Below, one piece after another: positions 16,265-52,272 of a DNA stretch of 64,000 bases. Each line of letters opens with the position of its first letter. Position 1 is the first letter of the stretch. Origin of the DNA: a virus; the IMG/VR virus record IMGVR_UViG_3300031992_004571; one strand, 5' to 3'. The notes beneath the pieces are model-generated. The model had not been told where the DNA came from and searched no databases. It was given only the letters and a program-made list of their open reading frames with translations. Both the position numbers and the translations under genes were made by a program.

Positions 16265-16550
16265 GCTTCGCAATACCATTCCAATCCTATTTCCTTAATC
16301 CTACGCCCACACCAAAGAGTATGTTTCATCCTGGCACAGAACCTTCTCATACTCAGCAGCAGAGCCGCAGGGTAGGATAAGGCACTGTTTACAGGAACAT
16401 GGGCGATGACAGACGCTTTCAATTCCTTAGACAAACCACTGGCAATCTCCGACAAGGCTCCGAAGCATCAGCAGTTTGTCTCTTCCTTGAAAACGACACT
16501 CATCCTAATGCCCATGTGGTGAAACATCACTCTTTCCCAACCCCCAAAAA
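16265..16550 (+). repeat. R2 conserved noncoding module, copy 1
   Basis: About 286 bp, colinear with 51575-51860. Conserved core gtttcatcctg.cacagaaccttctcatactcagcagcagagccgcagggtaggataaggcactgtttacaggaacatggg.gatgacag with a variable middle. Confidence 0.8.
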
Positions 16551-16584
16551 TCCGAACTTCCAGATAATTTTATACCTCCATTGT

Positions 16585-16615
16585 ACCAAATACCGCCTAT
16601 TTGGTACTTTTTAAT
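16585..16615 (+). terminator. Rho-independent terminator-like hairpin following R2 copy 1
   Basis: taccaaata-ccgcc-tatttggta followed by ctttttaatt. Confidence 0.5.
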
Positions 16616-16790
16616 TATTTCATAGAATAAACAAAAAAACGCATTTTTCCACATCGATGCGTTAATAATCGTTTTTTCTCCACGGAGTAGTAAAAACTCA
16701 ATGATAAATGGTGGAACAAAAAATGCAAACTTGAACAAAACATGAAGGTCTCATCAATGTCAGGTTATGTGGGTGTTTTTCACCCTAAAC

Positions 16791-17180
16791 GGTTCATTCC
16801 GCTTACGCGACGCCGTTTTCCTTGCAAAGGTAGGGAGGCTCGTAGCCATGCCAAGTACCAGTCGCACACTCCCTATTTCAGAAAAATTTTGTAAAGCCAG
16901 GGCATTTTCTTTTGGCACAAGGCACAAAACAAAATCAAAATTTTATCCGAAATTCCTTGGCGAAGGCTACTCTTTAGCCTCTCTCTTTTAATGGCAAGAA
17001 AAAGGCTATAAGCGAAACGAAGTCGATGACGACTAAAAAACATTAAACATAACTGCTGACTTGATGAGAGAATCAAGATAAGAAAAAGGCAAAGCTCACT
17101 CAGCCGATAACTCTCAAACAGCAGCACACAACAACAAACAAACACCGAAGGCGACGGAATAGAAAAAGCCAACAAACAGT
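16791..17180 (+). repeat. R1 conserved noncoding module, copy B (core plus 3' extension ending at the ATG of the next gene)
   Basis: Core is identical to copy D over ~165 bp apart from one substitution (ctcttta vs ctcctta). Extension gctgacttgatgagagaatcaag...agctcactcagccgataactc...caccgaaggcgacggaata is shared with D and C. Confidence 0.85.
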
Positions 17181-17435
17181 ATGAACGTAAATATTAAGTA
17201 CATCTTCGAGTGCAAGGACGGTTTCAAGTTCGAGCGTGAGACTCCAGAAGAGATTATCCGTATCATGCAGGAGAACTACGATGCGCTGAAGAAGATAGCA
17301 ACAGGCAACGGAGATTTCTGTAACTACTTCATTGATGCTTCCAACGAGTATTTCCCCAAGGGTACAATATGCACCAGCATAGACGGTACTTATAGAGTCT
17401 ATACATTGAGAACGGAGATAACTCAAATAAAGTAA
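17181..17435 (+). CDS. Hypothetical small protein (84 aa), first gene after R1-B
   Basis: ORF immediately 3' of R1. No recognisable motif. Confidence 0.45.
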   Translation: MNVNIKYIFECKDGFKFERETPEEIIRIMQENYDALKKIATGNGDFCNYFIDASNEYFPKGTICTSIDGTYRVYTLRTEITQIK

Positions 17436-17456
17436 TATTGTAAGTAATATTGTAAT
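17432..17456. promoter_or_regulatory. TTGTAATATT direct-repeat motif (reverse orientation of ATTACAATATTACAA)
   Basis: gtaatattgtaagtaatattgtaat. Related sites at 689-703, 46877-46898 and 49136-49150. Confidence 0.4.
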
Positions 17457-17487
17457 AAAACAATAATAACATATAAACATAAGTATT

Positions 17488-17880
17488 ATGGGTAATATCA
17501 CAATCATCCCGAAGCATGTGGACTTCTCACAGAAGATGAAGGAACTCCACCTGGCAATGTGTAAAGAGATTGCCTTTGTTATGGCAGCGACAGGAACGAA
17601 AGAACTGGATCTGCTTGGTACTGATACATGTCACGTCACCATCAAGATGGAACATAAGTTCACTGGAGAGACGGTAGATATTGAGGTGAAAAATGTAATC
17701 CTCAAAAACGACAACTTTTCTGAGGTTAACTTCGGAGAGGTCTATGTCACCTCACCTGACTGGAATTTCTGCGAGGATGAAATCTGTATCAGTAAAAACC
17801 AATACGTCATCCCTTGCAGCATCGAGGAACTGTATGAGGCAGTCTTTGAAAAATGTGACACCAACAGGGAAAAAAAGTAA
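17488..17880 (+). CDS. Hypothetical protein (130 aa)
   Basis: ORF in a co-directional array. Confidence 0.45.
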   Translation: MGNITIIPKHVDFSQKMKELHLAMCKEIAFVMAATGTKELDLLGTDTCHVTIKMEHKFTGETVDIEVKNVILKNDNFSEVNFGEVYVTSPDWNFCEDEICISKNQYVIPCSIEELYEAVFEKCDTNREKK

Positions 17881-17928
17881 GAAGGTAACGGGAGGTCTAA
17901 CCAGCCTCCCACCAAATAAATAATTGTA

Positions 17929-18777
17929 ATGAATACCCAGACCGACAAAAACAGAAACTACAAGTACCAGGGCGATAACCCTATAGTAACAGGAGAAAAG
18001 GGAAAGTTCCGCTGTTACTATATCAATCACGATGACAAGGCCGTGAGCCGGGTACTCGAACTGGAACAACTGAACCATCCGATACTCACCGAAGCGGGAG
18101 TAAAGGCATGGATGGAGCGTGATATGGACTGTTACAACCAGAGGTATGGAATAATTTACATCCAACTGACTGATAAGATCTGCTACCGCCCGATAAGGAC
18201 TGTATGTGATGCAACAACACTGGATATCTTAGACGGCCAGACCGTTAAAGGATGGTATGACGGTTATGCCGAGGACTGTGAAAAGAACCTCAATAAGATG
18301 TTTACAATGATTGCCGCCATCCCCAAGGCACAAATGAAAGGTGAATACTATCCTAATAAGGCCGTCATCGATGCCTATCTGGCAGCGGGTATGATAAACG
18401 AGGCAGGGCAGCTCAGTGAACACCGTAATGCCATTATCGCACAGCGCGAAGCCGAGGAAAACCGCCGCCGCCAAGAGACAGAAGAGCGTGAACGTAAAGC
18501 CAAGGAGGAAGAGGCAGCGGAGATAGCACGGCAGATTGCTGAAGAAGAAGAGTCCCTGCGCACCAAAGGGCATATCACTGGATGGGGAGTAGTACAACTG
18601 TGTGACCGTGAAGGTATCAACATACACCTTCGCACACGTCACAATCTTCTGGAGGTAATAACCTATTTCGAGGGTGGAGCAGCACACTACAGATATTACG
18701 GCAAGAGAAAGCCAAATCTGGACGGTTGTTTCAACACCCTTCGGGAACTGAAAAACAAATTAGGAATAGCAGCGTGA
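17929..18777 (+). CDS. Hypothetical protein (282 aa) with a central E/R-rich coiled-coil
   Basis: Segment REAEENRRRQETEERERKAKEEEAAEIARQIAEEEE. Confidence 0.5.
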   Translation: MNTQTDKNRNYKYQGDNPIVTGEKGKFRCYYINHDDKAVSRVLELEQLNHPILTEAGVKAWMERDMDCYNQRYGIIYIQLTDKICYRPIRTVCDATTLDILDGQTVKGWYDGYAEDCEKNLNKMFTMIAAIPKAQMKGEYYPNKAVIDAYLAAGMINEAGQLSEHRNAIIAQREAEENRRRQETEERERKAKEEEAAEIARQIAEEEESLRTKGHITGWGVVQLCDREGINIHLRTRHNLLEVITYFEGGAAHYRYYGKRKPNLDGCFNTLRELKNKLGIAA

Positions 18778-18778
18778 T

Positions 18779-19027
18779 ATGGTTATCATCAACGGACATA
18801 CTTTCTACGAGGAACCTGGTTGTTGTGGCACATGCCCCTTCCTCATGACCGGCAACACCGACGTGCCAGGGATAGGGCATACCGCACAACGGGGTCTCTG
18901 TATCCAATGGAACGAGGAACACCATACTTGGGCGCATATCCCCAGACGGTGTGCCAAACTCTTCAAGAGAGCATTCCAACTTTATGACAACAGCGGACAA
19001 GAATTAGTAATAACCTCTAAAGAATAG
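18779..19027 (+). CDS. Hypothetical Cys/His-rich small protein (82 aa)
   Basis: Motif CCGTCPF...H...HH...C. Start overlaps the previous stop. Confidence 0.4.
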   Translation: MVIINGHTFYEEPGCCGTCPFLMTGNTDVPGIGHTAQRGLCIQWNEEHHTWAHIPRRCAKLFKRAFQLYDNSGQELVITSKE

Positions 19028-19032
19028 AAAAG

Positions 19033-19200
19033 ATGAAAATAAAGGTATTTTTGGCTATTACGATTTTCAATGGTAAAGCCGAAGCAAATCAGATTTCAGA
19101 GAAATACTTCAATGATTTCAACTGGAGATTGAAGATGCAGGAGAAAGCTAATGAAGGCGAGTATCAGATTTATTTTACTGAAACGGAAATAACTAAATAA
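19033..19200 (+). CDS. Small ORF (55 aa), not in track
   Basis: ATG at 19033 and TAA at 19198 fill the gap in the gene array. Protein MKIKVFLAITIFNGKAEANQ... Confidence 0.3.
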   Translation: MKIKVFLAITIFNGKAEANQISEKYFNDFNWRLKMQEKANEGEYQIYFTETEITK

Positions 19201-19208
19201 CAAAAGGT

Positions 19209-19532
19209 ATGAAAACAATTATCTGCAAGTTCAAGTCCGATGGTAAGGACATTAAAAAGACGGCTATCCTCGGTGACTGTCTTCTCTTCCTCTCGAAGTC
19301 TAAGAAGAACGAGGCTACAGACATCCTGCAGCCGGAAGAGTTAGATAACGAAAACGCATGGGCGATTTTCTTTGCAGTCACAGAAACACTCGGCTATGAA
19401 GTGCAATTCGAGTATGACCGCGAAGTAAACAGACAGACCTTCAAACCGATCAAGGCCATCACCTGGGACGGCTCAGAGCCGGACAAGGTGACTATAACGG
19501 ATGTTCAGAATGTTACAGTAACAGTCAAGTAA
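19209..19532 (+). CDS. Hypothetical protein (107 aa)
   Basis: ORF in the array. Confidence 0.45.
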   Translation: MKTIICKFKSDGKDIKKTAILGDCLLFLSKSKKNEATDILQPEELDNENAWAIFFAVTETLGYEVQFEYDREVNRQTFKPIKAITWDGSEPDKVTITDVQNVTVTVK

Positions 19533-19537
19533 AACCT

Positions 19538-20083
19538 ATGAGAACGAGCAAAGAAGAATGGGGGAGTTGGACTGACCGCTCCCTTTCATGGGACAGACAG
19601 AAGGAAATATCCCTTTCCTTCAAGGAGGGTACGACACCAGAACAGATGGTGATAGCCGCCATCGGGATAGCAAAGAGATATAACTGCAATATCCTAAAGC
19701 CTGTTGAATATACCTATGATGAGAGCAAGGCAGATCCTCACAAAATCGCCTTTACGGTGGAATGCCATAAGTTCACGTATAAATACTTCTATGAGGACGG
19801 CATCGGGCAACACCATAACAGCGAGACGGTGACGGAAAAGGATATCGCCAGATACAAGGAGCGTTTCGGTACCGACAAGTGCATCCACAGGGATTTCAAG
19901 AAGAAATTCTGGTACTCCAGTAACTGGAACGGTGAGACACGTGAGTTTCATTCGCTTAAGAAAGCCAAGGAGGCAGCAGCGAAAGAGATAGGGATGACAG
20001 TCTGGATCTACACCAACTTCCCATACGGCAGACCGTCAGAGATAGTATTTAAAGCCGAAGCATCAGGGATTACGCCTCCCTGA
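19538..20083 (+). CDS. Hypothetical protein (181 aa)
   Basis: Last ORF of array 1, convergent with the minus-strand block. Confidence 0.45.
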   Translation: MRTSKEEWGSWTDRSLSWDRQKEISLSFKEGTTPEQMVIAAIGIAKRYNCNILKPVEYTYDESKADPHKIAFTVECHKFTYKYFYEDGIGQHHNSETVTEKDIARYKERFGTDKCIHRDFKKKFWYSSNWNGETREFHSLKKAKEAAAKEIGMTVWIYTNFPYGRPSEIVFKAEASGITPP

Positions 20084-20383
20084 TGCTTTTGACTCTCTAC
20101 GTGCCTCCCTTATCAGCCGTCTCATGGCACACCGGGCAAAATGCTTGTTGCCCCGGCCTTTCTTATAATAGCGGTAGTGCCATTTCGACATTCCTCTCCA
20201 GAGTTGGTAATACGAACACCGTTCACTCCACGGCTTTCCAAAAACCGCAAAGCGAAGGTTTGCCAGGGATGGTGAAATATCCCTGTCCCAGAGCGTCCAA
20301 AAAACGACGAAAAACACACTGACGGCAATAAAGCCTATTATCACCCACACCACAACACCTGTGTAATAGAACAAACTACTCAT
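20063..20383 (-). CDS. Small membrane protein (start at internal Met)
   Basis: cat at 20381-20383. Protein MSSLFYYTGVVVWVIIGFIAVSVFFVVFWTL. The longer track ORF would overlap the upstream gene by 98 nt. Confidence 0.4.
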   Translation of the reverse strand: MSSLFYYTGVVVWVIIGFIAVSVFFVVFWTLWDRDISPSLANLRFAVFGKPWSERCSYYQLWRGMSKWHYRYYKKGRGNKHFARCAMRRLIREARRESKASGRRNP

Positions 20384-20816
20384 GCTCTTTCTCCTTTCCT
20401 GACTTATAGAAAAACTCCAGTTCCCCACCAGTGAGGAACCTGATAATATTCTGCAATGAATGGATATAGGCACATTCTATCCTGGTCCAACGCTTCTGGG
20501 TAAAGTCAGGCTGGAACTTGAATGTGCTATAGTGCTTCCTTTTGTCATACTTCCAATAGAGACGCATATCTCCGAAATAATATACCAGTTTCCATGCTCT
20601 TTCGTTAGACTCGATGAACCCTATATGACGAAGGATGTCACCAGTGATGGGCAATCCATTCACCTTATCATGCTTGGCACACAAGAGATTGTCATCCCAT
20701 AATACAGTAAGTGTGTCAGTATTTAACTTGACTACCTCACATGGCCCATATTCTATGCCGTCAACTTCGATAATAACCAGACTACCTAATGATAACTCTC
20801 GTATATTCATAATCAC
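20376..20816 (-). CDS. Hypothetical protein (146 aa)
   Basis: ORF with no recognisable motif. Confidence 0.45.
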   Translation of the reverse strand: MIMNIRELSLGSLVIIEVDGIEYGPCEVVKLNTDTLTVLWDDNLLCAKHDKVNGLPITGDILRHIGFIESNERAWKLVYYFGDMRLYWKYDKRKHYSTFKFQPDFTQKRWTRIECAYIHSLQNIIRFLTGGELEFFYKSGKEKEHE

Positions 20817-21301
20817 TTCTCGTTAAGTTTGACATATTTCCCTTCAATACAACACTGGCGAAGCACATCATCATTGTGCTTTCCCCATGCCACCAAACAA
20901 CTGCCGAAAAACGGCTCACTCTTGCGCCCGTCAGGGCAAATGAACTTCACCCTGTGACGCATAAACAGCATACTGTCTGCAGACGGAAAGATAACTTCCT
21001 GAAACAATAGGTTATCAGTACGGTTTACCAACAACGCTATGCCGTTATTATGAGCGGCCAGACGCTCCACAAACTGACGTAAAAGTATCCGTGAATAGGG
21101 TGGGTTAAGCCACACCCTGCCAGTCCATACCTTACTCAGACCGTCATCATTCTTAGTATAATGAACTTTTGCCGTATCAAACGGACGGTCTATCGGGCTG
21201 CACGGATCAAGGTCAAACTCACCCAATGCGTCAAGGATCCATTTCGGGGTGTACCATTCATCAGAGGACACCTTCTTATTCTTTTGCTGTCTTGTATCCA
21301 T
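20813..21301 (-). CDS. Orphan DNA N6-adenine methyltransferase, phage T1-type Dam family
   Basis: Motifs EWYTPKWILDALGEFDLDPCS and VWLNPPYS, which are diagnostic of the small phage Dam family. Confidence 0.75.
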   Translation of the reverse strand: MDTRQQKNKKVSSDEWYTPKWILDALGEFDLDPCSPIDRPFDTAKVHYTKNDDGLSKVWTGRVWLNPPYSRILLRQFVERLAAHNNGIALLVNRTDNLLFQEVIFPSADSMLFMRHRVKFICPDGRKSEPFFGSCLVAWGKHNDDVLRQCCIEGKYVKLNEK

Positions 21302-21420
21302 ATATTATTTAGCAACGTACAAATTTAACGTCAATTTCTTGTTTCTAAGAGAACAATACGCGCTGCACGGTGCATCTTATCTTCTCCATAGTACGCTCTT
21401 CTTATGCTTCACAGCAACAG

Positions 21421-22320
21421 TTACTTCTCTTCAAACAGACTCCAGTCACGACCGACGGACACCATCTTATTTCCAAACACATAAGCATCATTGAAATCGC
21501 TGGCCGCAAAATTCCTGATGCTATCCTTCCAATAGATCTTCATACTCTTCTCAATGGCTATCAGGGTAGTCTTATACAGAAACTCATTACACTCCTTTAT
21601 GTCGTATGGCTCAAAGCCATTGGCATGACGGTTAGACATCAGCCCGATAAGGTGCTGATTACAGAAACCCGCAGTCTGCTCAATCATCCGGAAGCTGCTC
21701 TCAAAGTCCACTATTGGCTCGACACTTACAAAGGTCTTTAATCCCCACTGGCGACACCACCGCATAGTCTCGATACGCTCAGCGTTCGACGGAGCATGTG
21801 GCTCCAAGTCGTCACGTCCTGTAAGCGTAAAACCGAGTGCGATATTTATCCTATACGGACTGTCAATGAACTTACGAAACAAAGCCTTTCCTGTTCCGGC
21901 ATTCTTTGTGAGAATCTTCACAGGAATGTTATTCTTGGCAGCATATAAAGCCGCCTGAATAGTCAACTCGTAAGTATCTTGTGATAATGGATCCGTAGTA
22001 AACGAGAAGAAAATACCATGCTTAGCCAGATGGCTATACCATTTCTCACACTCACGCTTGAATACCAGGAGGGCATACTGCTCACCTGTCAGGTTACGGT
22101 ATTTCTTGGGTACATTACACTCCTTACTGAAGGAGTCCTGCAGATGGGCGTAAGGGAGTCCATTCACTGGGGCTGTGATACCCGTCCGATTATAGCAATA
22201 CTCGCATTGAAACGGACAACCACGATAGAAGTTACAACCCACTGCTGCATACTCTCTGGCAGCACCGCCAGGAGTATACAGACATTTTCCGTTTAACTTA
22301 ATCTCTTTCATAATCTTCAA
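21421..22320 (-). CDS. Radical SAM protein, SplB/DNA-photolyase-like
   Basis: GCPFQCEYCY fits the CxxxCxYCY radical SAM cluster motif of the COG1533/SplB type. 299 aa. Confidence 0.55.
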   Translation of the reverse strand: MKIMKEIKLNGKCLYTPGGAAREYAAVGCNFYRGCPFQCEYCYNRTGITAPVNGLPYAHLQDSFSKECNVPKKYRNLTGEQYALLVFKRECEKWYSHLAKHGIFFSFTTDPLSQDTYELTIQAALYAAKNNIPVKILTKNAGTGKALFRKFIDSPYRINIALGFTLTGRDDLEPHAPSNAERIETMRWCRQWGLKTFVSVEPIVDFESSFRMIEQTAGFCNQHLIGLMSNRHANGFEPYDIKECNEFLYKTTLIAIEKSMKIYWKDSIRNFAASDFNDAYVFGNKMVSVGRDWSLFEEK

Positions 22321-22616
22321 TTATAATTTACGTCATTATCTTTCTTGTCTGGGTGCCTGAAATGATGACTGGTAGCATGGATCACATTCTCAATGATACG
22401 CTCAATGAAATGTTGTGGGCCAGTCTCACCATTCACGGCTGCACAGAAAATCATATCAGCAATAGAATCAATACCATTATCGGTTTTAACACCGACAATA
22501 CCTTCAACAGACTTGCCGGGCACATGATTGGCGACACAAAGCACATAGTCAAGGTTCTCGGCCTCCAGTTGGTCGCGAATGTCGGACAATAATTCATCAA
22601 ACTTCTCAGAATCCAT
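22317..22616 (-). CDS. Hypothetical protein (99 aa), translationally coupled to the radical SAM gene
   Basis: 4-nt overlap with the downstream gene. Confidence 0.4.
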   Translation of the reverse strand: MDSEKFDELLSDIRDQLEAENLDYVLCVANHVPGKSVEGIVGVKTDNGIDSIADMIFCAAVNGETGPQHFIERIIENVIHATSHHFRHPDKKDNDVNYN

Positions 22617-22618
22617 GG

Positions 22619-25303: not shown

Positions 25304-26320
25304 TTATTTATTTTCCTCGTGTTTTTTCAGATATTCTTCCGGCCAACATTTGTAACGCTTACGGAAAGCATCTCGCATACTGGCTATACCATCCTTATCG
25401 AGGTTATAGATGTTGTCAATAACCGCATGAGCGGAATGACATCCTGCTTCAATCTCAGAAACAACCTGGATCTTATTACGGACTTTCCCCGAATCATCGA
25501 CAATATCCTCCTGCACGGACTTCTGGGGACGGAGCCTATATCGTACTGACATATGGGGAAAGTACTTACGGAATGTAGATGCAAAAGCATCAATATTTTC
25601 TTTCTCCAAAAGTTCGTACTGCTCCTTTGTCACAGACAGTTGAATAAGCCTGTCTGAAACGAAAATCGTATCAATATAAACGTCGCTTACGATATTCTTT
25701 GTTTCTTTATCAGGAAAAAGACTACAGAAGTCACGAAGAAACTCCGGCCACTGACGGTAAACCGACTGACGAAGATTCTCTTCATTCTGCCGTCGGGCAA
25801 GATATTCTTCATTCATATATTCTTGACGCTTTGCTTCACATTCTTCAGCAAAATCCTTCAAGGCACAGGTGATAACCATCGGGTCAACCTTCCCGTAGAA
25901 CTTACCGAAATGACCGCACTTGAAACGATAGAAGAACATTTGCATCACAGAATACTTCATATCCTTGTACTCCTGGGCCAACAGCAGAGCCAGTTTCTTA
26001 GTCTGTTCATCGTCCATATTCTTGGAACCAGTGAACTTGTTCAGATTGGCAAGGGCTGTGACAAGCCACGACGAAGCAGACTCTGGCCCAAAAGCAGAGT
26101 CAAGCATCCCCAAAGTGGAATAACCCTCCATGATGGACTTACGTTCATCAGAGGCAAAGATTGCCTGCGTATCAGGATTCACTTCAACATTGAAGTTCTC
26201 ATACGACTGGTAACTCTTTCTGAGGTGTTCCACCGCCAGAGCGCAAGTCTTTGATGATGTTGACTGCGCCTGTATAGATGTCCTCGCCTGTGCGATAGCC
26301 GTTGTTACTGTCTGTTCCAT
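25304..26320 (-). CDS. Hypothetical protein (338 aa, probably shorter from an internal Met)
   Basis: The track ORF overlaps the upstream gene by 122 nt. An internal Met at ~26131 is the likely start. Confidence 0.4.
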   Translation of the reverse strand: MEQTVTTAIAQARTSIQAQSTSSKTCALAVEHLRKSYQSYENFNVEVNPDTQAIFASDERKSIMEGYSTLGMLDSAFGPESASSWLVTALANLNKFTGSKNMDDEQTKKLALLLAQEYKDMKYSVMQMFFYRFKCGHFGKFYGKVDPMVITCALKDFAEECEAKRQEYMNEEYLARRQNEENLRQSVYRQWPEFLRDFCSLFPDKETKNIVSDVYIDTIFVSDRLIQLSVTKEQYELLEKENIDAFASTFRKYFPHMSVRYRLRPQKSVQEDIVDDSGKVRNKIQVVSEIEAGCHSAHAVIDNIYNLDKDGIASMRDAFRKRYKCWPEEYLKKHEENK

Positions 26321-27167
26321 TAGTTCTATTTTTTTTGTTCAACTTATCTTCCTGGATAATCATCCAACTGCTGAAATGATGCTTTGCATCTCCGAGATTC
26401 TGATGACGTTTGCCGGAGATCTTGACTTCCTGCCCCCAACGCTGTAGGTATTCATCAAGAAGTTGCTCATTGACACCAAGAAACTTGAAACGCATGAAAA
26501 CCTGTTCCTTCCAGATGGGACTGGCGCGAAGCACGGTAATTTCTGCATCTACATCGGCGCACACCGTCTGGTCATCGGCACCTACCACCGGCCCCTCACC
26601 CTCGCGTGCACGGGTATCCGCACTCGAAGAGTGCTCTCCTTTACTTTCCTCTCCTTTACTTTGTGTACTTTTTCCGGAGTTATTCGGGGTTTCTTCCAAA
26701 TTATTATTTATTTCTTCCGAATTAAATATGGTTTGTTCCGAAGAAACTACCTTTTTATCGGAATTAACCTGATTAGGATTCAAGTTCACAACTAAATATG
26801 GAGTGTTATCCGGAAACTTACGTTTGGCGACAGTACAGAAGGAAATATAACGCTCCTGAATACCATGCGAAGTGAGTACCTGATGAGTATCGAAAACAGT
26901 CTTATCAAAAAGACCGATAGTGATGCAGTAATTGATAATGTCTTGAATTGTATCTTCCTCTAAACCAGAGATTTCAGAGACAATGAAAGGCAAATCTTCA
27001 TCCCAAGGCAGATAGTAGCCAGAGGCATATATCTGACATAACAGAATATGATAGACCGATACCGCCTGAACACCTTTATGGCGTATCAGTTTACGAATCT
27101 TAATGTCCTGATAGAAATTCACATCGTTCGTGAAATAATCAAGACCTTGCTTCTTTGGTCGTGCCAT
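26199..27167 (-). CDS. DUF4373 (Lin1244/Lin1753-like N-terminal) replication-initiator-like protein with a low-complexity SEE(T/I) linker
   Basis: MARPKKQGLDYFTNDVNFYQDIKIRKLIRHKGVQAVSVYHILLCQIY matches the DUF4373 phage replisome-organizer N-terminal pattern. Confidence 0.55.
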   Translation of the reverse strand: MARPKKQGLDYFTNDVNFYQDIKIRKLIRHKGVQAVSVYHILLCQIYASGYYLPWDEDLPFIVSEISGLEEDTIQDIINYCITIGLFDKTVFDTHQVLTSHGIQERYISFCTVAKRKFPDNTPYLVVNLNPNQVNSDKKVVSSEQTIFNSEEINNNLEETPNNSGKSTQSKGEESKGEHSSSADTRAREGEGPVVGADDQTVCADVDAEITVLRASPIWKEQVFMRFKFLGVNEQLLDEYLQRWGQEVKISGKRHQNLGDAKHHFSSWMIIQEDKLNKKNRTNGTDSNNGYRTGEDIYTGAVNIIKDLRSGGGTPQKELPVV

Positions 27168-27645
27168 AACAGGTGTTATTTAAGAGTAAACAATCATTGT
27201 TAGTAGTTTCTTCCGAAATAATTCGGGTTTCTTCCGAATTAACTACCGTTTCTTCCGAGGAAACTGTCTGTTTCTTTGGAATATCAAAAAAGTAAGGTAT
27301 AGACTCACTGTCTATCACTCCATCACCAGAGAGAATAAACTTGGATGGGATGGCTACCATACGACGCTGGGTGAAAGCCTCTTTGTCAAGAAGATCATTC
27401 TTTGCCATACGGCGTACAACCATCCCTACCAAGTTAGGGGTAATACCATCATGACGAGACGCAACCTTATGAAGGAAACGACTATCATAAGGCCGCTCAA
27501 AGCCCTCACTCGTAACCTCAAACAAGATGGTTACAATAAGGAAGGCTCCCTTGAAGCCAAACTCCTTCTGGATAGCCTTCACACAGGGGAATGTGTAAAA
27601 ACTACGACTAAGGTGAACTGCTTCGGCTGTTAAAGTCTTACTCAT
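27139..27645 (-). CDS. Second DUF4373-like protein (paralog) with a C-terminal SEET x3 repeat
   Basis: FYTFPCVKAIQKEFGFKGAFLIVTILFEV plus VSSEETVVNSEETRIISEETT. Confidence 0.45.
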   Translation of the reverse strand: MSKTLTAEAVHLSRSFYTFPCVKAIQKEFGFKGAFLIVTILFEVTSEGFERPYDSRFLHKVASRHDGITPNLVGMVVRRMAKNDLLDKEAFTQRRMVAIPSKFILSGDGVIDSESIPYFFDIPKKQTVSSEETVVNSEETRIISEETTNNDCLLLNNTCYGTTKEARS

Positions 27646-31369: not shown

Positions 31370-32305
31370 TCAGAGATTTATAACATTGGATTTCCTTTCC
31401 CAAATCATCTTCTCAGAATCGGCAGCAATGATGGCATCCACATCCATGCCGAAATGGAGATGCAGACTCTCTAACAGGTCTTCAAGTTCCGTCAATGACT
31501 TCTTACCGAAATTGCGAAACTTCATCAAATCGGTCTTGTTACACTTCACAAGGTCGTAAAGTGTATCAACGTCAGCACCTTTTAAACAATTCAAAGACCT
31601 GACAGAAATGCCTAAATCATAGACTGGCGTATTCATCATGGCGGTAAAGGTTCCACCTTTATCACCTAACAGGTAATCATATTCTGATACTGGTGCAGTA
31701 TCGATATTGTTGATACGCTCCAGTTTCTTGACACGGTTCTGCAATGCTTCAATAACATTCTGGAAATTGGTATTGTCAAAAACAAGTTGCTTATATTCCC
31801 TACGTAACTCAGAGAACGTCTTCACCGTGGCAAGTTTGCGCACGGCATGACTGACAATCTGCATGATACGACTACGGGTAAGACCGTACTCTTCAGCCAC
31901 ATATTCCACATCCTTACCTTCAAGAAGCATCGTAAGAATAGTTTTCTCACGTTCTTTCAGTACATCGTCACCACTGGCCTCGATGATAACCGAAAAAATC
32001 TCATTGATAAGATGTGCGGGAACACCTTTTCCTAACAGGTGGATGGCAGAACGGGTATCATCAAGATTCTTCTCTAACTCCTTCTCTGCCAACTGAAGGT
32101 CACGCTTCGCCGCAAAGATTCTCTTTTCAATGAAAGCCAAGTCTGACAACGTATCGAAATACTTCTCGATAGTCGCTTTGTCTATCTTTAACAGACGGTC
32201 AACAAAATGACCTTTCAACACGCCCTTCTCAACCCAGTTGGAAATGGTCTGAGGGGTGACATCCAACAGCAGAGCTGCTTCGTCTCGGGATAAAAGCCTT
32301 GCCAT
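31370..32305 (-). CDS. Multidomain regulator: N-terminal excisionase/MerR-type HTH, central sigma-70 region-4/LuxR-like HTH, and a C-terminal RNA polymerase alpha-CTD-like (HhH) domain
   Basis: [114 protein letters not shown]. Confidence 0.5.
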
Positions 32306-32609
32306 ATAATACTTCTTTTTATCGTTAATTACTCGTGGAAAGGAAAGCACTTCTGCTTTCTACATCACAATTGGACATCCAAGAATAACCAGATGCATGG
32401 TTATCAATCCGCTGCCCCACTATGTAACGCTGACACTGCCCTTTTAAAAGGCAGTTGACACCCTCACAAAACAGATATAGTTCATTCTTTTCCATAATCA
32501 CTTATCATCTAAATTCAACCTGCTACAAGCGGCCAGACCAGCCATGATAAAACCCATGAGAGTACCAAGGAGGAAACCGATGCCTCCGAAAACAAAATTC
32601 ATTAACATG

Positions 32610-45708: not shown

Positions 45709-45728
45709 ACTCTCGTAATCTAAAATAG

Positions 45729-45765
45729 CAGCCCTGACATTCTTACTGTCAGGGCTTTTCCGTTT
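45729..45765 (+). terminator. Rho-independent terminator after int
   Basis: agccctgaca-ttcttac-tgtcagggct followed by tttccgttttc. Confidence 0.6.
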
Positions 45766-46062
45766 TCTGATTGCACTTATATCATATTTTCTTATTTTGT
45801 TGAAAGAAAACTTTGTATTCTTTTTCTGTTTTTCGGGCGCAGTCAAACATAGATTTTCTGTGCTAAGGTAGCGGAAACCGTTCCCGGCAAGGGTCGCATA
45901 ATGCTTGGCTTCGGAAAACTTACAGAGAATTTTGGGTGCAGCAGCTCCGTAATCAAAATTCACAGGAACTTTCCCGGCCATCCCTTGACCTTATGGGACT
46001 ACCTTTCCTACGCTTCAGAATGCACATAAAATTCAAAGTTTAACTTCTAAAAACAGAACGAA

Positions 46063-46758
46063 ATGAATACTTCATCAGTTTCCAACCTTTCAATCAAAAA
46101 CTGGTCAAAAGATGACCAGCCCATTCAAAGAATGCAGTCATTAGGTACTCAAAGCCTTTCTGACGCAGAACTGCTTGCAGTACTAATCGGCAGCGGCACT
46201 AAGGGCCGTTCAGCCGTAGAAATCGCAAGAGACCTTCTCGCGAAGTTCAATAACAGTCTAAACGCCATTGGCAAGGCACGACTGGATGAGATAACATCTG
46301 TTGAAGGCATTGGTCTTACCACCGCCTGCAGAATATCCGCTGCCATTGAAATTGGCAAGCGTAGAACAAAAACTGACGAAACTCCTGACCTCGGTACAGC
46401 AGTCAGAATCTACAATTTTATGCTCCCAATCATGAAAGATCTTGATACTGAAGAATTTCATATCATACTGATGAACCAGAACTTCCACTTTATAAAGCGT
46501 TTACGCATTTCTAAGGGTGGTATCTCTGAAACAGCTGTTGACATCCGTATCATTATACGTGAAGCTGTTCTTAATAACGCTACCATTTTGGCCTGCTGCC
46601 ATAATCATCCCAGTGGTTCTCTCAGACCCAGTAGGGCTGATGAAGAACTAACACGTTCAATCAAAAACGCCTGTCAGCTGATGCGCATCCACTTTTTGGA
46701 TCATGTCATCGTGACGGATGGAGCTTATTACTCCTTCCACGAGGAAGGTAAAATCTAA
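46063..46758 (+). CDS. radC: RadC-like JAB-domain protein
   Basis: N-terminal HhH region (LSDAELLAVLIGSGTKG) and JAB motif HNHPSG. Confidence 0.8.
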   Translation: MNTSSVSNLSIKNWSKDDQPIQRMQSLGTQSLSDAELLAVLIGSGTKGRSAVEIARDLLAKFNNSLNAIGKARLDEITSVEGIGLTTACRISAAIEIGKRRTKTDETPDLGTAVRIYNFMLPIMKDLDTEEFHIILMNQNFHFIKRLRISKGGISETAVDIRIIIREAVLNNATILACCHNHPSGSLRPSRADEELTRSIKNACQLMRIHFLDHVIVTDGAYYSFHEEGKI

Positions 46759-46779
46759 AGGTTTTACATTCTCGCCCAT

Positions 46780-46816
46780 ATCGGGTAGTATCTAATGGTA
46801 CTATCCGATATTTTTT
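46780..46816 (+). terminator. Terminator-like hairpin after radC
   Basis: atcgggtagta-tctaatgg-tactatccgat (1 mismatch) followed by attttttat. Confidence 0.45.
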
Positions 46817-46876
46817 ATGTTCAATAAGAAATATTCCAAACCTACAATATTTCATTATAAATAGTAATATTAGCAT

Positions 46877-46898
46877 ATTACAATAAAACAATATTACA
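46877..46898. promoter_or_regulatory. ATTACAAT...CAATATTACA motif variant
   Basis: attacaataaaacaatattaca. Confidence 0.35.
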
Positions 46899-46972
46899 CT
46901 ATAAACTTATGGACAAGAACAAATAACACCATCTTTCCTATGTCCTTTCCGTTGTTTAATTTTCACCATAGA

Positions 46973-47337
46973 GGTTCATTCCGCTTTCTGACGTCTTTCC
47001 CCTTGCAAAGGTAGGGAGGCTCGTAGCCATGCCAAGTATCAGTTGCACACTCCCTATTTCAGAAAAATTTTGTAAAACCCAAGGGCATTTTCTTTTGGCA
47101 CAAGACGCAAAACAAAATCAAAATTTTATCCGAAATTCCTTGGCGAAGGCTACTCTTTAGCCTCTCTTTTTTAATGGCAAGGAAAAGGACTAAAAGCGAA
47201 ACGAAGTCGATGACGACTGAAAATTTATTGAAACAACGGCTGACTTGGAAAGAAAACCTTATGAAAAGGAACTTAGCTCACTCAGCCGATAACTCTCAAA
47301 AACCGAAGCCGACGGAATACAAACAGGCATATATAAA
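46973..47337 (+). repeat. R1 conserved noncoding module, copy C
   Basis: Core shares ~95% identity with B and D, with single-base indels. A shortened 3' extension ends at the ATG at 47338. Confidence 0.85.
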
Positions 47338-47556
47338 ATGAAACAGATGTGGCTACTTATCATTAAAAACCTCAGTAAGAGCGAAGTCTTTGATTTGTTC
47401 TTTGAGGGTCTGGAGTATGAAACCGTAAATGGTGAAATACATATCCAGTATGAGAGAAAGAAATACCTGATGGAAGATCTTAACGGTGCAAAGGCGAGAA
47501 CTTTAAAAGAAATTGCCTATGAGATAGATAAAATACAATTAACTCCAATATGTTAA
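47338..47556 (+). CDS. Hypothetical small protein (72 aa), first gene after R1-C
   Basis: ORF with no recognisable motif. Confidence 0.4.
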   Translation: MKQMWLLIIKNLSKSEVFDLFFEGLEYETVNGEIHIQYERKKYLMEDLNGAKARTLKEIAYEIDKIQLTPIC

Positions 47557-47560
47557 AACT

Positions 47561-47839
47561 ATGATAACAGTCAGTGAAATACAGAAAATTCTCAATGATG
47601 CAGGCATCAGCGGAGAAGTAGAACAAGATTCAATCCCTTTTCTGGTGGCAGTCACAATTTATTGGGGTGACTGGAAACACGACCACGGATATCTAAAATA
47701 CCTCATGCAGCAGCATGGTCTTACCCATGTCAAGGAAGAATTATTGGAAGAAGATGGAAGCGACTGTTATAGTGCCAAACATCTCTTCGGTGAGGATCAT
47801 TTTGTAGAAGGCGCAAGAAAACTCTTTCAACCGGCATAA
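47561..47839 (+). CDS. Hypothetical protein (92 aa)
   Basis: ORF with no recognisable motif. Confidence 0.4.
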   Translation: MITVSEIQKILNDAGISGEVEQDSIPFLVAVTIYWGDWKHDHGYLKYLMQQHGLTHVKEELLEEDGSDCYSAKHLFGEDHFVEGARKLFQPA

Positions 47840-47890
47840 TAACAAGGTAACGGGGAGCCTAACCAACTCCCCATAATATACTCCACAACA

Positions 47891-48196
47891 ATGAAAACTA
47901 TCTATCGAGTAATATTGGCTGTCGATTATAAAGGACATCGCGAACGTGAACAATATTACACAGAAAAAAGAGAGGAAGCGGTAAACCGCTATATCGAAGC
48001 CCAGATAAAAGTGAAACGCTTCGGTGAAGAGAAAGGGCTGAAGGTATATGACATGGTGAATAACAATAACTATATGACTACTTTCGCAGACGGAAACCAA
48101 AAAGGCAAGCCCTATACGGGTGCAATGGCTAAATTTTCTCGTAAAGAATTTGTGAAAGATGACTTCTTGAATTTGGGTAATACACCAATATTCTAA
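47891..48196 (+). CDS. Hypothetical protein (101 aa)
   Basis: ORF with no recognisable motif. Confidence 0.4.
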   Translation: MKTIYRVILAVDYKGHREREQYYTEKREEAVNRYIEAQIKVKRFGEEKGLKVYDMVNNNNYMTTFADGNQKGKPYTGAMAKFSRKEFVKDDFLNLGNTPIF

Positions 48197-48220
48197 CAAT
48201 AACCTAACAGATAGATAAAT

Positions 48221-48433
48221 ATGATAACAACAAAATATATAATGACCGTCCAGATAGGACGTAACGTGACAGATATTATTGCTCTGCCATGTGTGGATAG
48301 TGTGAGAAAATCCTACAAGGGTGTTCTAATCTATCAAGTAAACACTGGCAAGAGCCAACCAGAATATGCAAGGGAAGGTGACCTTATCTGCCAGGATAAT
48401 GATGGTGAATGGCATGTTGAATATAAGCAATAG
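48221..48433 (+). CDS. Hypothetical protein (70 aa)
   Basis: ORF with no recognisable motif. Confidence 0.4.
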   Translation: MITTKYIMTVQIGRNVTDIIALPCVDSVRKSYKGVLIYQVNTGKSQPEYAREGDLICQDNDGEWHVEYKQ

Positions 48434-48440
48434 AATTATG

Positions 48441-49094
48441 GAATATACTAACAGAGGAACAATAATGCACCTCACTCTACATAACTGTACGGTGCAGAAT
48501 AATGGAACCATCATGCACCTTGACGGTGAGGGTAACCATATAAACAACAAAGGGTCTATCATGCACAATGATGGAGGCAGGGTGATAATCATGGGTGCAG
48601 GAACATACCAACAGCAACCGGTGAAAGAAAAGATCGTCTATCAGGACAGAATCGTTTACCGTGACCGCCCTACTCCATCAAAGAAAGATGCACAACGCAT
48701 CAAGAGACTCGAAGAACAGGTTGAAAACCTGAAGGAACAAATCAGAAAATCCACTGAGGCAAGAAATGCTGAACGTCTGGAGAATACAATCAGTTTTTTG
48801 GAAAACGCTAACCGCGAACTGAAAAATAATATTGAAGAACTCAAAGCAGACCTCGAAGCGGCAGATAGAATGAAACTGCTACGGGAAATCGAGGAACTGA
48901 AAGAGAAAGTCCAGAGAGCGAAGAATCGCGAGCGTATCAGCAGGCACCAACAATACGAGAAGGGTTATCAGGCTGGTGTGGTGGATGGAAGTAATAAGAA
49001 AAAAGAAGTGTTTGATTGGGGTGTACACCCCACAAAGGAACAGGCAGAAGCACTTATGAAACAACTCCGAATATGGCTTGATTGTGAGGATTGA
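48441..49094 (+). CDS. Protein with N-terminal G(T/S)IMH(L/N) repeats and a C-terminal coiled-coil
   Basis: Start reassigned to MEYTNRG directly after the upstream stop. Repeats TIMHL x2 and SIMHN. Coiled-coil RIKRLEEQVENLKEQIRK... Confidence 0.45.
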   Translation, partial: EYTNRGTIMHLTLHNCTVQNNGTIMHLDGEGNHINNKGSIMHNDGGRVIIMGAGTYQQQPVKEKIVYQDRIVYRDRPTPSKKDAQRIKRLEEQVENLKEQIRKSTEARNAERLENTISFLENANRELKNNIEELKADLEAADRMKLLREIEELKEKVQRAKNRERISRHQQYEKGYQAGVVDGSNKKKEVFDWGVHPTKEQAEALMKQLRIWLDCED

Positions 49095-49135
49095 CCGATT
49101 AAGAAATAATAAAATATTGAAATATTTATGCTAAT

Positions 49136-49150
49136 ATTACAATATTACAA
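49136..49150. promoter_or_regulatory. Exact ATTACAATATTACAA motif (second copy of the site at 689-703) upstream of a candidate -7 box TATCTTTG
   Basis: Identical 15-mer at two loci. TATCTTTG lies at ~49162-49169. Confidence 0.45.
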
Positions 49151-49195
49151 GAAATATTTGTATCTTTGCAGACGAAAATATGATAATACTGAAAT

Positions 49196-50176
49196 ATGAA
49201 AGATTTCGATTTATATAGTTATGACAGATATATCGTCAGTTTCTCTGGGGGAAAAGACAGTACCGCCCTACTGCTCTTCCTCCTTGATAATGGTGTACCG
49301 GAAGAGAAAATAGAACTCTGGCATCAGGAAATAGACGGACGTGGCCGTAGTCTCTTTGATTGGGAGGTAACACCAGACTATTGCCGAAAGTTGGGTGAAG
49401 CATTTAATATCCCAGTTTACTTTCAATGGAAAGTCGGTGGTTTTGAGCGTGAAATGACTCGCACAGAAAGCCTAACGGCACCAGTCTGTTTTGAACTTCC
49501 TAACGGTTCAATACAACAGACTGGAGGTGACAGGGGTAAACCTTCCACGCGGAATAAGTTCCCACAACCGTCACCAGACCTTCGGGTGCGCTGGTGCAGC
49601 GCATATCTGAAAGTGGATGTATGTGCAACGGCTCTTCGTCATCAAGAGAGATTTCAGAACAGCCGTACTCTGGTATTGTCTGGTGAACGGGGTGAGGAAA
49701 GTAAACAGCGTGCAGGATATGCCATCATTGAACCTGACAGGGCAGATCTGAGGAATGGACGTAACCCCAGATACATTGACCGCTTCCGTCCTATTCGTGA
49801 CTGGAAGGAAAAGCAAATATGGGATATACTGGAGAAATACCGTGTTCGTCCTCATCCATGCTACTTCATGGGGTTCGGACGGTGCTCGTGCAAATTCTGT
49901 GTATTCGGTAACTGTCATCAGTTTGCCTCTGCTGCCTGTGTGAGTCACGACCAGGCCAATGACTTGATAAAGTTTGAGAAAGATTTCGGGTACACGATGA
50001 AACGTGATACAGACCTCGCTTCTCTTATCCGTAAGGGTGTTCCTTATGACTCCATCACGGAAGAATTAAGACAAATTGCCACTTCATACGAATATACTGC
50101 ACCTGTGTTTATCTCTGATAAAGAGACTTGGCAACTTCCTGCAGGAGCCTTCCGTAAATGCGGTGGCCCATCATAA
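49196..50176 (+). CDS. PAPS reductase-family (PP-loop) protein with a C-terminal Cys cluster
   Basis: PP-loop YIVSFSGGKDSTALLL. Cys cluster GFGRCSCKFCVFGNC. Confidence 0.65.
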   Translation: MKDFDLYSYDRYIVSFSGGKDSTALLLFLLDNGVPEEKIELWHQEIDGRGRSLFDWEVTPDYCRKLGEAFNIPVYFQWKVGGFEREMTRTESLTAPVCFELPNGSIQQTGGDRGKPSTRNKFPQPSPDLRVRWCSAYLKVDVCATALRHQERFQNSRTLVLSGERGEESKQRAGYAIIEPDRADLRNGRNPRYIDRFRPIRDWKEKQIWDILEKYRVRPHPCYFMGFGRCSCKFCVFGNCHQFASAACVSHDQANDLIKFEKDFGYTMKRDTDLASLIRKGVPYDSITEELRQIATSYEYTAPVFISDKETWQLPAGAFRKCGGPS

Positions 50177-50196
50177 TAACTTAAACTTTCTATGAT

Positions 50197-50688
50197 ATGG
50201 ATACAATCACAATGCAGACACTTAAACGCCTGGAGGCCACCAAAGGCCAGAAACACCAAACTTCAGCGAAAAAACGCTTGAAGGTGTTCTATGGATGGAG
50301 TAAAATCAATAAGATACAGAAGCGCGAGGCTATTGCCATCGCCTTCGAGAATGAGGAACTGGCGGGTTCCGACTGCCGCCGGTCAAGCAAATCCCTTCAA
50401 AAGGTGATGACTATCTGTTGCGAGAGATGGCAGACGGAAGAGGAAATGAAAGATGCACCCTATCATAATAGGGTATTCACGATGTATAATGTATTTCTCG
50501 ATGATAAGCGTATTGGCGGTAGCCTAAAAAAGGCTCTGGCAGACAACTCAGAGAAAGATAAGAACCATGTAAGTGAAAACGAGAGGAAAAGAATCTCTCA
50601 ATCACTTGAAACTGCCTTTATAGCCGCACATCCCGGCTATCAGGAGCCGACACGGGAATTGGAACTACCGTTTACGCCTGACAAATGA
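50197..50688 (+). CDS. Hypothetical protein (163 aa)
   Basis: ORF with no recognisable motif. Confidence 0.4.
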   Translation: MDTITMQTLKRLEATKGQKHQTSAKKRLKVFYGWSKINKIQKREAIAIAFENEELAGSDCRRSSKSLQKVMTICCERWQTEEEMKDAPYHNRVFTMYNVFLDDKRIGGSLKKALADNSEKDKNHVSENERKRISQSLETAFIAAHPGYQEPTRELELPFTPDK

Positions 50689-50708
50689 CAGACGTAAACG
50701 GCTTTTTT
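50668..50708 (+). terminator. Rho-independent terminator ending array 2
   Basis: ccgtttacg-N16-cgtaaacgg followed by cttttttc. Confidence 0.55.
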
Positions 50709-50774
50709 CAAAATTCCGCGCCGGGCTGCTTCCATAAGGTCGCAGCCCCAGACGACACAAGTATGCGCCGCCTG

Positions 50775-51053
50775 TTACAAGGTTGCCGTACCGGCAGGCT
50801 TTCTTTTCTTTGACAGATTCAGACGTTCCAAAACTTCATCCTTACGGTATTTCCAAATAGCAGACATAAGCCTGCCTTCAGGAGTTTGAAGTTTCTCCAT
50901 TCTTTTGAAATACGCTTCCACCTTTTCAAGGCGATCGTCACGAAAGACATTCTCTGATCTTTGGAACTTAATAGGCCGTCCAATAATACGGCCCTGTTTG
51001 AACTCACACATTGACTGTGCCAGTGTTCTGGCAGAATAACATTTCTTTCTCAT
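50775..51053 (-). CDS. Small basic protein (92 aa from internal Met)
   Basis: MRKKCYSARTLAQ... The N-terminal 17 codons of the track ORF are encoded by a terminator hairpin. Confidence 0.35.
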   Translation of the reverse strand: MRKKCYSARTLAQSMCEFKQGRIIGRPIKFQRSENVFRDDRLEKVEAYFKRMEKLQTPEGRLMSAIWKYRKDEVLERLNLSKKRKPAGTATL

Positions 51054-51082
51054 AATAAAAACCTCCATGATTTTAAATAGGT

Positions 51083-51112
51083 GAAACAAAAAGAAGGGAA
51101 TCAAGCCCCTTC
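51083..51112 (-). terminator. Minus-strand rho-independent terminator
   Basis: On the minus strand: gaaggg-gcttgatt-cccttc followed by tttttgtttc. Confidence 0.5.
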
Positions 51113-51574
51113 TATTTGTATTTTATCCTACTCTCTGCACAAATTGGGCATAGCAACCATACTTTAACATAAATTTAACACTTTTCTAACAAAAAATCAT
51201 ATATCCCTCGCTTCGCAGTGTAATAGGTACACCGCTCATGGCCTCTATTGGTTGAGGGAAAATCCCTGATTACGGGCCTCCGTCGGATGGAACACATCAA
51301 ATTTGCAAAGCGTAGAGTATAACGGTCATCTTTATCGTAAACGCCGTTGGTCTCTGTATGACAAGTATGCAAACATACACATCATACAGTGCTCGCTACT
51401 CCTTCACAAGCTCGGAGGTATCAATCACCGACTAACAATGTTTACGGATGATCATCATACACTCCTTCTTTGCATGATGGTTTCATTACCGATGGTTTCC
51501 CTGATGTAATCCGAGATATTCCACACAACCAGTCCGTGAGCGACTATATACCCAAATTAGAAAAACGTACAAAA

Positions 51575-51860
51575 TGCTTCGCAATACCATTTCTATCCAA
51601 ACTCTTAATCCTATCGCCCAACCAAAAGAGCATGTTTCATCCTGACACAGAACCTTCTCATACTCAGCAGCAGAGCCGCAGGGTAGGATAAGGCACTGTT
51701 TACAGGAACATGGGTGATGACAGTCGGTTTTAATTCCTTTTACTAACAGCGGAGTCACGTCGGCAAGCTCCTGAGAACTCAGCAGTTAGTATTTCCTTAA
51801 AACGGACACTCATCATAATGCCCATGTAGTGAAACATTACTCTTTCCCCACCCTTTTTTA
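51575..51860 (+). repeat. R2 conserved noncoding module, copy 2
   Basis: Colinear with 16265-16550 with a variable middle. Followed at ~52105-52135 by a similar taccaaata...tatatggta hairpin plus T-run. Confidence 0.8.
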
Positions 51861-52272
51861 TCGAATCAACCTGGATCTGATAATAACAACCTTTTTGTTG
51901 ATATAATGATTACCGTCATTAGTCAACTGATGGCGCAAGCGTATCTCACTGATGCCAATGTCATCAGCCGAAAACTTCCGGAAGATGGCAGATACACTAC
52001 CGAAATAATAATTCTTATGCCCATGCAGAAAATGAACATGCACAATTTTGATGCCTTTTGTTTGTTGTTCCATAACAAAATATTTTTGCAAAGATACCAA
52101 ATAACTCTTATATGGTATTATTTTAACCTGCATAAATAAGAATTATTAACCAATACAAACAGTTAAAGACTGACCTATAATCAAATAATTATGTTGTGTG
52201 GTGAGTACCACAAACTTGAACAAAGATGAAATCTCATCTACGTCCTGTGCGTTACGTCTGTTGTCACCGTAA

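Follow-up and report, generated by a model that had tools for sequence, protein, structure and literature searches.

Little is known about how the conjugative plasmids of Bacteroidota become established in a new host or how their transfer is regulated, and the literature that we found for these bacteria holds one small RNA (sRNA) and neither single-strand initiation (ssi) sites nor any described element of the Frpo/ssi type. The sRNA, RteR, is 90 nucleotides (nt) long, is made from its own constitutive promoter and represses the transfer (tra) operon of the Bacteroides element CTnDOT (PMC3809561). Here we analyse R2, a noncoding element present twice in a 64,000-nt stretch of DNA (IMG/VR record IMGVR_UViG_3300031992_004571; the whole stretch is hereafter the window), which is a conjugative element of Bacteroidota, namely a conjugative plasmid of rumen Prevotella.

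Several described systems come close. Like the Frpo/ssi elements that plasmids F and ColIb-P9 carry in their leading regions, R2 is a repeated noncoding module of a few hundred nt on a conjugative element, forms a long imperfect hairpin, and lies in several copies of one orientation near SSB and establishment genes (PMC11541004). With the single-strand origins (sso) of rolling-circle plasmids and sso1 of ICEBs1 it has in common that it is noncoding, forms three stem-loops when single-stranded, keeps structure over sequence and is dispensable or redundant (PMC4595007). RteR and R2 (the regulatory role of which is putative) are both noncoding and carried by Bacteroidota conjugative elements, and in one lineage the gene that partners R2 directly precedes the tra genes.

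A two-copy noncoding element with a three-way fold

R2 is a discrete, conserved and structured noncoding element. The repeat search recovered it as two direct copies (repeat family D2, 173 nt at 86%), the sole two-copy family of this size in the window; blastn aligns the copies over 284 nt at 84.5% identity, and an nhmmer profile run over the 64 kilobases returns exactly two matches, copies 1 and 2. Hence, the two copies reported in a first-pass annotation (made from the letters alone) are real, and so are the conserved ends that it described around a divergent middle: in the alignments this middle (16423-16486 in copy 1, 51734-51796 in copy 2) is the tip of hairpin 2, while a block of 52-54 nt covering hairpin 1 is invariant across all window-type copies examined. 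The extents and parts of the copies, as obtained from the repeat search, the alignments and the folds, are listed below.

16264-16545, minus strand favoured (unproven): R2 copy 1
16264-16313: tail of copy 1 (boundary mini-hairpin at 16264-16272)
16314-16329 and 16519-16535: outer stem of copy 1
16330-16395: hairpin 1 of copy 1
16397-16517: hairpin 2 of copy 1
51575-51855, minus strand favoured: R2 copy 2
51575-51624: tail of copy 2
51625-51640 and 51829-51845: outer stem of copy 2
51641-51706: hairpin 1 of copy 2
51708-51827: hairpin 2 of copy 2 (variant-B tip at 51734-51796)

The element consists of a ~50-nt unstructured, C/A-rich tail, the first 9 nt of which form a mini-hairpin (TGCTTCGCA), and after it a three-way junction of ~225 nt (a fold of ~230 nt) made of the outer stem, hairpin 1 and the long hairpin 2. 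Two versions of the hairpin 2 tip exist, both of which pair: most copies carry variant A, whereas copy 2 and the related locus L012 carry variant B. On both strands R2 folds far better than shuffled sequences (z about -4 to -11), and with DNA parameters z lies between -3 and -10, again on both strands. Window variants A and B, loci L034-36 and L040-42 all adopt this three-way fold, with stems that differ in sequence (hairpin 2 of L034, for instance, is a perfect stem of 19 base pairs (bp)). What is kept between window-type and L034-type copies are the blocks CATGGrCATTAGsATGAsTGT and CTGTCATCGyCCATG (in gene sense), which correspond to the junction and bulge; similar junction landmarks are recognisable in L040.

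Compensatory change was assessed in alignment A6, which takes in L034 and L036 and leaves out the L040 lineage. Here 93.3% of the cells are paired (36-46% when the partners are slid), and 17 of 72 pairs changed on both sides, a count reached by none of 500 shuffles and to be compared with 1-6 in the slid controls. Among the close copies (at least 83% identity) there are four double-changed pairs only, which 7 of 500 shuffles reach. A rougher nine-sequence alignment (A8), which adds L040 and L041, gives 25 of 52 pairs changed on both sides; as the L040 lineage could be aligned only roughly in it, the case for covariation is built on A6 and the individual folds. The comparison of homologs proposed in the first-pass annotation has thus brought out compensatory changes, and because of this covariation, together with the bulges conserved across lineages, we take the structure of R2 to be under selection.

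No reading frame stays open throughout R2 in both copies on either strand, which bears out the earlier statement that no open reading frame (ORF) is conserved, and the short ORFs within the element are likewise not conserved (the copy of L003 is without the ATG). A degraded remnant of a protein gene, the alternative named in the same annotation, was also examined and rejected: stops occur in all six frames and the frames are unlike between the copies. Rfam covariance models gave no gathering-level match in the window and none inside R2 at E <= 5; on L034, L036 and L040 the sole match was a chance one (mir-593 over the R2 of L034, with E = 0.89 and 20.6 bits where the gathering score is 100).

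Homologs were sought by scanning core 20-mers against 185,579 species genomes and a metagenome collection, from which eight true R2 copies emerged, all at least 83% identical and in the same syntenic context only. More distant copies, in two lineages, were reached through the neighbouring gene: those of L034-36 were picked up by nhmmer (E = 2e-12), and those of L040-42 were spotted by eye and then supported by folding and a wider profile (E = 1e-45). All relatives stem from rumen or gut Prevotellaceae metagenome-assembled genomes and metagenomes; blastn of R2 against 72,556 plasmids gave zero matches, a phage collection likewise zero, and two scans of viral contigs no relatives. R2 is a structured noncoding element family without prior description in Rfam, in annotated plasmid or phage records or in the literature found, and its host range is narrow.

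The 71-aa gene, its predicted promoter and R1

The constant partner of R2 is a minus-strand gene of 71 amino acids (aa), and not the repeat R1. In lineages in which the protein is 100%, 77% and 61% identical, R2 starts 4-13 nt past the stop codon of this gene on the same strand (about 12 nt in copy 2), and the terminator scan found no terminator-like site between the two. Neither in the window nor in 42 fetched loci was R2 found at any site other than after or beside the 71-aa gene block, and it always lies between convergent units. The features around the two copies are:

16169-16189, minus strand: terminator-like hairpin with T-run, 75 nt past the tail of copy 1
16556-16607, minus strand: what appears to be left of a decayed 71-aa gene region next to copy 1 (from aligning the two spacers pairwise)
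16825-16832, minus strand: distal promoter-like box TACCTTTG at the left edge of R1_B, directed toward copy 1, with TTGG 18 nt upstream
51092-51113, bidirectional: terminator-like hairpin about 460 nt past the tail of copy 2
51858-52073, minus strand: conserved 71-aa gene (phrog_10608 family), with R2 directly 3'
52089-52118, minus strand: predicted proximal promoter of the 71-aa gene, -7 box TATCTTTG (52096-52089)
52308-52315, minus strand: distal box TACCTTTG at the left edge of R1_D, directed toward the 71-aa gene and copy 2

Judged by its sequence, the 71-aa ORF is a genuine gene. The protein has 44 homologous clusters at 57-99% identity, in the alignment of which 12 columns are invariant (H12, H14 and H48 included), H19 is nearly so and the C-terminus is fixed. 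It matches phrog_10608 (E = 1.7e-16), and its AlphaFold model reaches a predicted local distance difference test score (pLDDT) of 89.6 with no fold match in the PDB. The family displays the histidine pattern HVHFxHGH plus H48. In L037-39 (pig gut), which have no R2, the gene stands directly upstream of the tra genes, and therefore its product may be a transfer regulator.

The Bacteroidota promoter consensus comprises a -33 TTTG and a -7 TAnnTTTG box, and we infer promoter activity of the following motifs by their likeness to it. A proximal box, TAT[CA]TTTG, precedes the ATG by 23-27 nt in 7 of 9 gene-bearing loci tested, the exceptions being L018 (TAATTTTG at -23, without the palindrome described next) and L037 (at -101). 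In 8 of the 9 loci (not in L018) the proximal -7 box adjoins a palindrome of the general form TACCAAATA-N5-7-TATTTGGTA, which looks like an operator-type element of the putative 71-aa promoter; that of copy 2, ATACCAAATA-N5-TATATGGTAT (52094-52118), overlaps the box TATCTTTG. These observations recast part of the first-pass annotation, which had placed a terminator-like hairpin and T-run after both R2 copies. After copy 1 a plus-strand terminator-like site is present (16583-16607 plus TTTTT), whereas after copy 2 the terminator scan called nothing at ~52105-52135: the palindrome there sits on the predicted minus-strand promoter, and the plus-strand "T-run" is the A-rich tract upstream of the proximal -7 box.

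The distal box TACCTTTG lies inside R1 in most gene-bearing loci tested, 199-258 nt upstream of the ATG in L012, L014, L022, L031 and L034 and at -453 in L037; further minus-strand occurrences are at 13487-13494 and 47006-47013. Each R1 core in the window bears, at its left edge, the motif cTTGg-N18-TACCTTTG on the strand opposite the gene arrays, and the distal box of R1_A points into the tra operon (a 198-aa gene, 13135->12539, then DUF4134). Given this promoter-like motif on the opposite strand, R1 may be a divergent promoter region, beyond being a plus-strand leader. The leader between R1_A and the sliding-clamp gene also contains tandem aacgcaa(t/a)aa repeats (13775-13820).

R1_B (16706-17185) follows copy 1 and R1_D (52190-52665) follows copy 2, as the first-pass annotation had stated for its R1 copies B and D. 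Its composite R2-spacer-R1 unit fares less well, for the spacer of copy 2 holds the 71-aa gene, and R1 also turns up with no R2 beside it (at R1_A, at R1_C and in many relatives). The proposed pairing of R2 with the R1 leader finds no backing either in this distribution or in the complementarity between the R2 tail and the R1 leaders, which is nothing unusual (15 of 16 comparisons with z between -1.7 and +0.7, one at -2.7). The spacer of copy 1 shares with that of copy 2 the R1-proximal ~100 nt, the palindrome and short matches to the start and interior of the 71-aa gene; in the remnant the palindrome (GTACCAAATA-ccgcc-TATTTGGTAC, 16583-16607) is kept and the -7 box lost. This is modest evidence that the copy 1 spacer is a decayed copy of the R1-gene-R2 block. 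The R1-gene-R2 segment looks like an old duplication, which would explain the apparent composite unit.

R1 and R2 act as recombination breakpoints at which gene arrays are shuffled, and the relatives are mosaic. The R2 flanks comprise three unrelated left and two right flanks, recombining freely round sharp R2 boundaries. L006 and L007 combine the left flank of copy 2 with the right flank of copy 1, and L012 joins R1_D directly to the gene array that in the window follows R1_B (against 48213-52665 and 16726-19164). We also considered R2 as the first domain of a long noncoding RNA and rejected this candidate, as conservation past R2 is patchy and the copy 1 flank is unrelated to that of copy 2.

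Several lineages carry the gene and lack the element. In L014-16 the stop codon of the 71-aa gene leads directly into the R2 tail, the palindrome being gone, and in L017 a 27-nt collapsed palindrome remnant is left; since L014 and L017 encode the identical P0014 protein, the absence is a deletion and not an unfilled target. L018-24 and L031-33 have no R2, and in L022 a classical bidirectional terminator occupies its place.

As for the outer ends, the minus-strand hairpin at 16169-16189 is a possible 3' end of a minus-strand transcript. On both strands the base of the R2 stem itself is rich in A on its 5' side and in U on its 3' side. At 15258-15322, at convergent gene ends, lies another element (~65-75 nt, by eye a hairpin pair) that is 88% identical to L034:2386-2450 and shared with L031:1748-1823; it may be a bidirectional terminator or other structured element.

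Strand, favoured explanation and rivals

Several measures lean consistently toward the minus strand of R2, without amounting to proof. The minus-strand fold energy is lower in five of five representatives (by 5-21 kcal/mol), the G.U pairs number 10, 8, 6, 8 and 4 (36) on the minus against 5, 2, 6, 2 and 4 (19) on the plus strand, hairpin 1 has z-scores of -4.1 to -4.8 against -2.1 to -3.0, and in L040 the three-way architecture is reproduced in the minus orientation only. In the regions scanned, which begin at 16200 and 51500, no plus-strand TAnnTTTG occurs within R2 or upstream of it, and the R2 stems hold no Bacteroidota -7 box on either strand (near-matches picked by eye differ between the copies).

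The explanation that we favour, albeit tentatively, is that R2, read from the minus strand, forms a structured RNA domain within the 3' untranslated region (UTR) of the 71-aa gene transcript; that R2 is transcribed, acts as RNA and has a role as such is what we infer from the arrangement. Transcription would start at the predicted promoter of the gene (TATCTTTG) or at the R1 left-edge box (TACCTTTG) and read through the gene directly into R2, which would then fold into the ~225-nt three-way junction followed by the G/U-rich tail. Folded, R2 would most likely serve as a stable 3' end and as a barrier between convergent transcription units, and the conserved bulge and junction sequences would point to a specific binding partner. 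Copy 1 would stem from a duplication of the whole R1-gene-R2 block, after which the gene decayed and R2 persisted, and it could still be transcribed from the R1_B box.

Several observations speak against this 3'-UTR explanation. The z-scores of the whole element do not cleanly separate the strands, and R2 of L034 is a nearly perfect palindrome with z about -11 on both. R2 is dispensable, being deleted, absent or replaced by a terminator in five of the eight gene lineages. No more than 3-4 U come after the outer stem, which makes no classical intrinsic terminator, and the R2 stem was left uncalled in the terminator scan. Perfect helices of 13-19 bp are uncommon for bacterial regulatory RNAs and typical of DNA-level palindromes, and template switching between palindrome arms at the DNA level can mimic compensatory change. 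Lastly, a conserved three-way junction of 225 nt with sequence-conserved bulges exceeds the needs of a simple 3' stabiliser or barrier.

The main rival, less probable in our judgement, is that R2 is a folded single-stranded DNA (ssDNA) site of the ssi/sso/Frpo kind: once transferred by conjugation, the entering strand would fold and recruit RNA polymerase or primase, either for complementary-strand synthesis or for early transcription toward the SSB and clamp arrays. The setting suits it, with transfer genes in the window (TraM, TraK, TraJ-like, TraG/VirB4-type ATPase, DUF4134 and DUF5045 in Pfam/NCBIfam scans) and, near R2, establishment-type genes (a sliding clamp behind R1_A, RadC ahead of R1_C, SSB within the array that follows R1_D, orphan methyltransferases) and ParA. 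Both copies have the same orientation and lie upstream of plus-strand arrays, the folds with DNA parameters are good (z -3 to -10), and the minus-strand boundary motif GCGAAGC / GCGGAGC fits what we take to be a GNA-loop DNA mini-hairpin. R2 is also noncoding, with several stem-loops in 225-280 nt as in sso and Frpo (PMC4595007, PMC11541004), and keeps structure over sequence while being dispensable or redundant, as is the case for ICEBs1 sso1 (PMC4595007). Yet no -33/-7 boxes lie inside the stems on either strand, and therefore a feature that defines Frpo is missing; none of the plasmids in the collection resembles R2; and copy 1 is separated from R1_B by two plus-strand terminator-like hairpins. 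Pfam/NCBIfam scans of most large ORFs of the window revealed no relaxase, nor did one appear in related contigs within 10 kb past its ends, and no origin of transfer (oriT) was identified. An ssDNA site also leaves the tight coupling to the 71-aa stop codon in three lineages unexplained. We presume that dispensability and variable copy number also argue against R2 as the sole oriT, and that its size and three-way fold do not fit an integron attC-like site.

Two further readings appear to us improbable. A selfish or neutral palindromic insertion, at most a passive terminator, of the miniature inverted-repeat transposable element (MITE), enterobacterial repetitive intergenic consensus (ERIC) or repetitive extragenic palindrome (REP) type is an unlikely account of R2, even though the outer-stem arms resemble terminal inverted repeats (AAAGAGtrATGTTTCA), short G-rich direct repeats flank the palindrome, its presence is polymorphic (L014 and L017 against the window) and it folds on both strands. 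Within the window the inverted-repeat motif is confined to the two copies of R2, and the scans of species genomes and metagenomes turned up syntenic copies only; the "empty" allele of L014 and the 27-nt remnant of L017 are deletions; the flanking G-rich repeat is imperfect and itself conserved across lineages; the sequence shared by the copies runs ~50 nt past the palindrome; and covariation with conserved bulges indicates selection. Still less credible is the proposal of the first-pass annotation, a plus-strand sRNA, ~300-350 nt in length and ending with the taccaaata hairpin, that would have the R1 leader as its target or partner. The plus strand does fold significantly (z of -4.6 and -5.1), copy 1 has a good terminator-like site on the plus strand after it, and this copy could be part of the 3' UTR belonging to the plus-strand clamp operon. 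Against it stand the missing plus-strand promoter box in the scanned regions, upstream flanks that are non-homologous between the copies, plus-strand terminator-like sites upstream of copy 2 (50783-50797 and 51092-51113), a real minus-strand gene downstream of copy 2, a copy 2 hairpin that belongs to the predicted promoter, the weaker plus-strand fold with the architecture lost in L040, and the lack of excess complementarity to the R1 leaders.

One further reading, which we hold to be rather unlikely and offer as speculation, would join R2 and the 71-aa histidine-cluster protein in a two-part module controlling establishment or tra expression of Prevotella conjugative plasmids, with R2 as the nucleic-acid ligand of the protein or as a folded ssDNA site on the transferred strand.

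Plasmid setting and comparison with described systems

Besides ParA, the window has iteron-like repeats, which suggest a plasmid: direct repeats (TTTCTTCCGAA units) at 26680-27273, inside or beside a Lin1244_N/DUF7833 gene (26199-27167, minus strand), are the likely vegetative replication origin. Further establishment-type content is a PAPS-reductase-like gene. Between the ParA operon and the next plus-strand genes, nested AT-rich inverted repeats (56413-56700) are a candidate oriT or divergent regulatory region. A minus-strand gene at 31370-32350 encodes a protein of unusual architecture, combining HTH_17, sigma-70 region 4 and an RNA polymerase alpha C-terminal domain; such a protein could turn host transcription toward promoters of the plasmid. 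Between the clamp gene and copy 1, the segment 15240-15960 has a guanine-plus-cytosine content of 0.50-0.55 (about 0.42 nearby), is open in all six frames yet without a long ORF, and has no Rfam match; tandem ttcttggaaat-like repeats lie at about 15200-15250. Past the left end of the window, a related contig (L028:19770-21239) encodes a multi-domain protein of 6493 aa, the domains of which include helicase, nucleotidyltransferase and MutS_I; a few genes separate it from the last tra gene that can be recognised, which lies upstream.

Whether as RNA or as folded ssDNA, R2 offers a testable handle on the control of abundant rumen and gut plasmids, and it is tied to an uncharacterised, strongly conserved small protein that directly precedes the tra operon in some relatives. 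Were it only an elaborate 3'-end structure, its importance would be modest; were the two-part module or the ssDNA site true, no ssi/sso/Frpo-type element, or no protein-plus-RNA control module, would have been described before it for conjugation in Bacteroidota.

Set against the described systems, R2 departs from Frpo/ssi in having stems without host-type promoter hexamers and no sequence similarity, in forming a three-way junction where Frpo is a single long hairpin, and in being coupled to the 3' end of an opposite-strand gene. It differs from the sso by its company, for the iteron-like repeats beside the Lin1244_N (DnaD-like) gene suggest an iteron-type origin rather than a rolling-circle one. 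Unlike RteR, R2 is about 280 nt long, has no promoter of its own and occupies a 3'-UTR position, and no homology between the two was detected. Structured 3'-UTR elements, 3'-UTR-derived sRNAs and ERIC repeats can, like R2, place a large hairpin just past a stop codon between convergent genes, and such elements and palindromic repeats fold, as R2 does, in transcripts from either side. R2 is set apart from the ERIC-type repeats by being single- or two-copy and confined to one plasmid family, and to our knowledge passive repeats lack what R2 possesses: a conserved three-way junction, sequence-conserved bulges and covariation.

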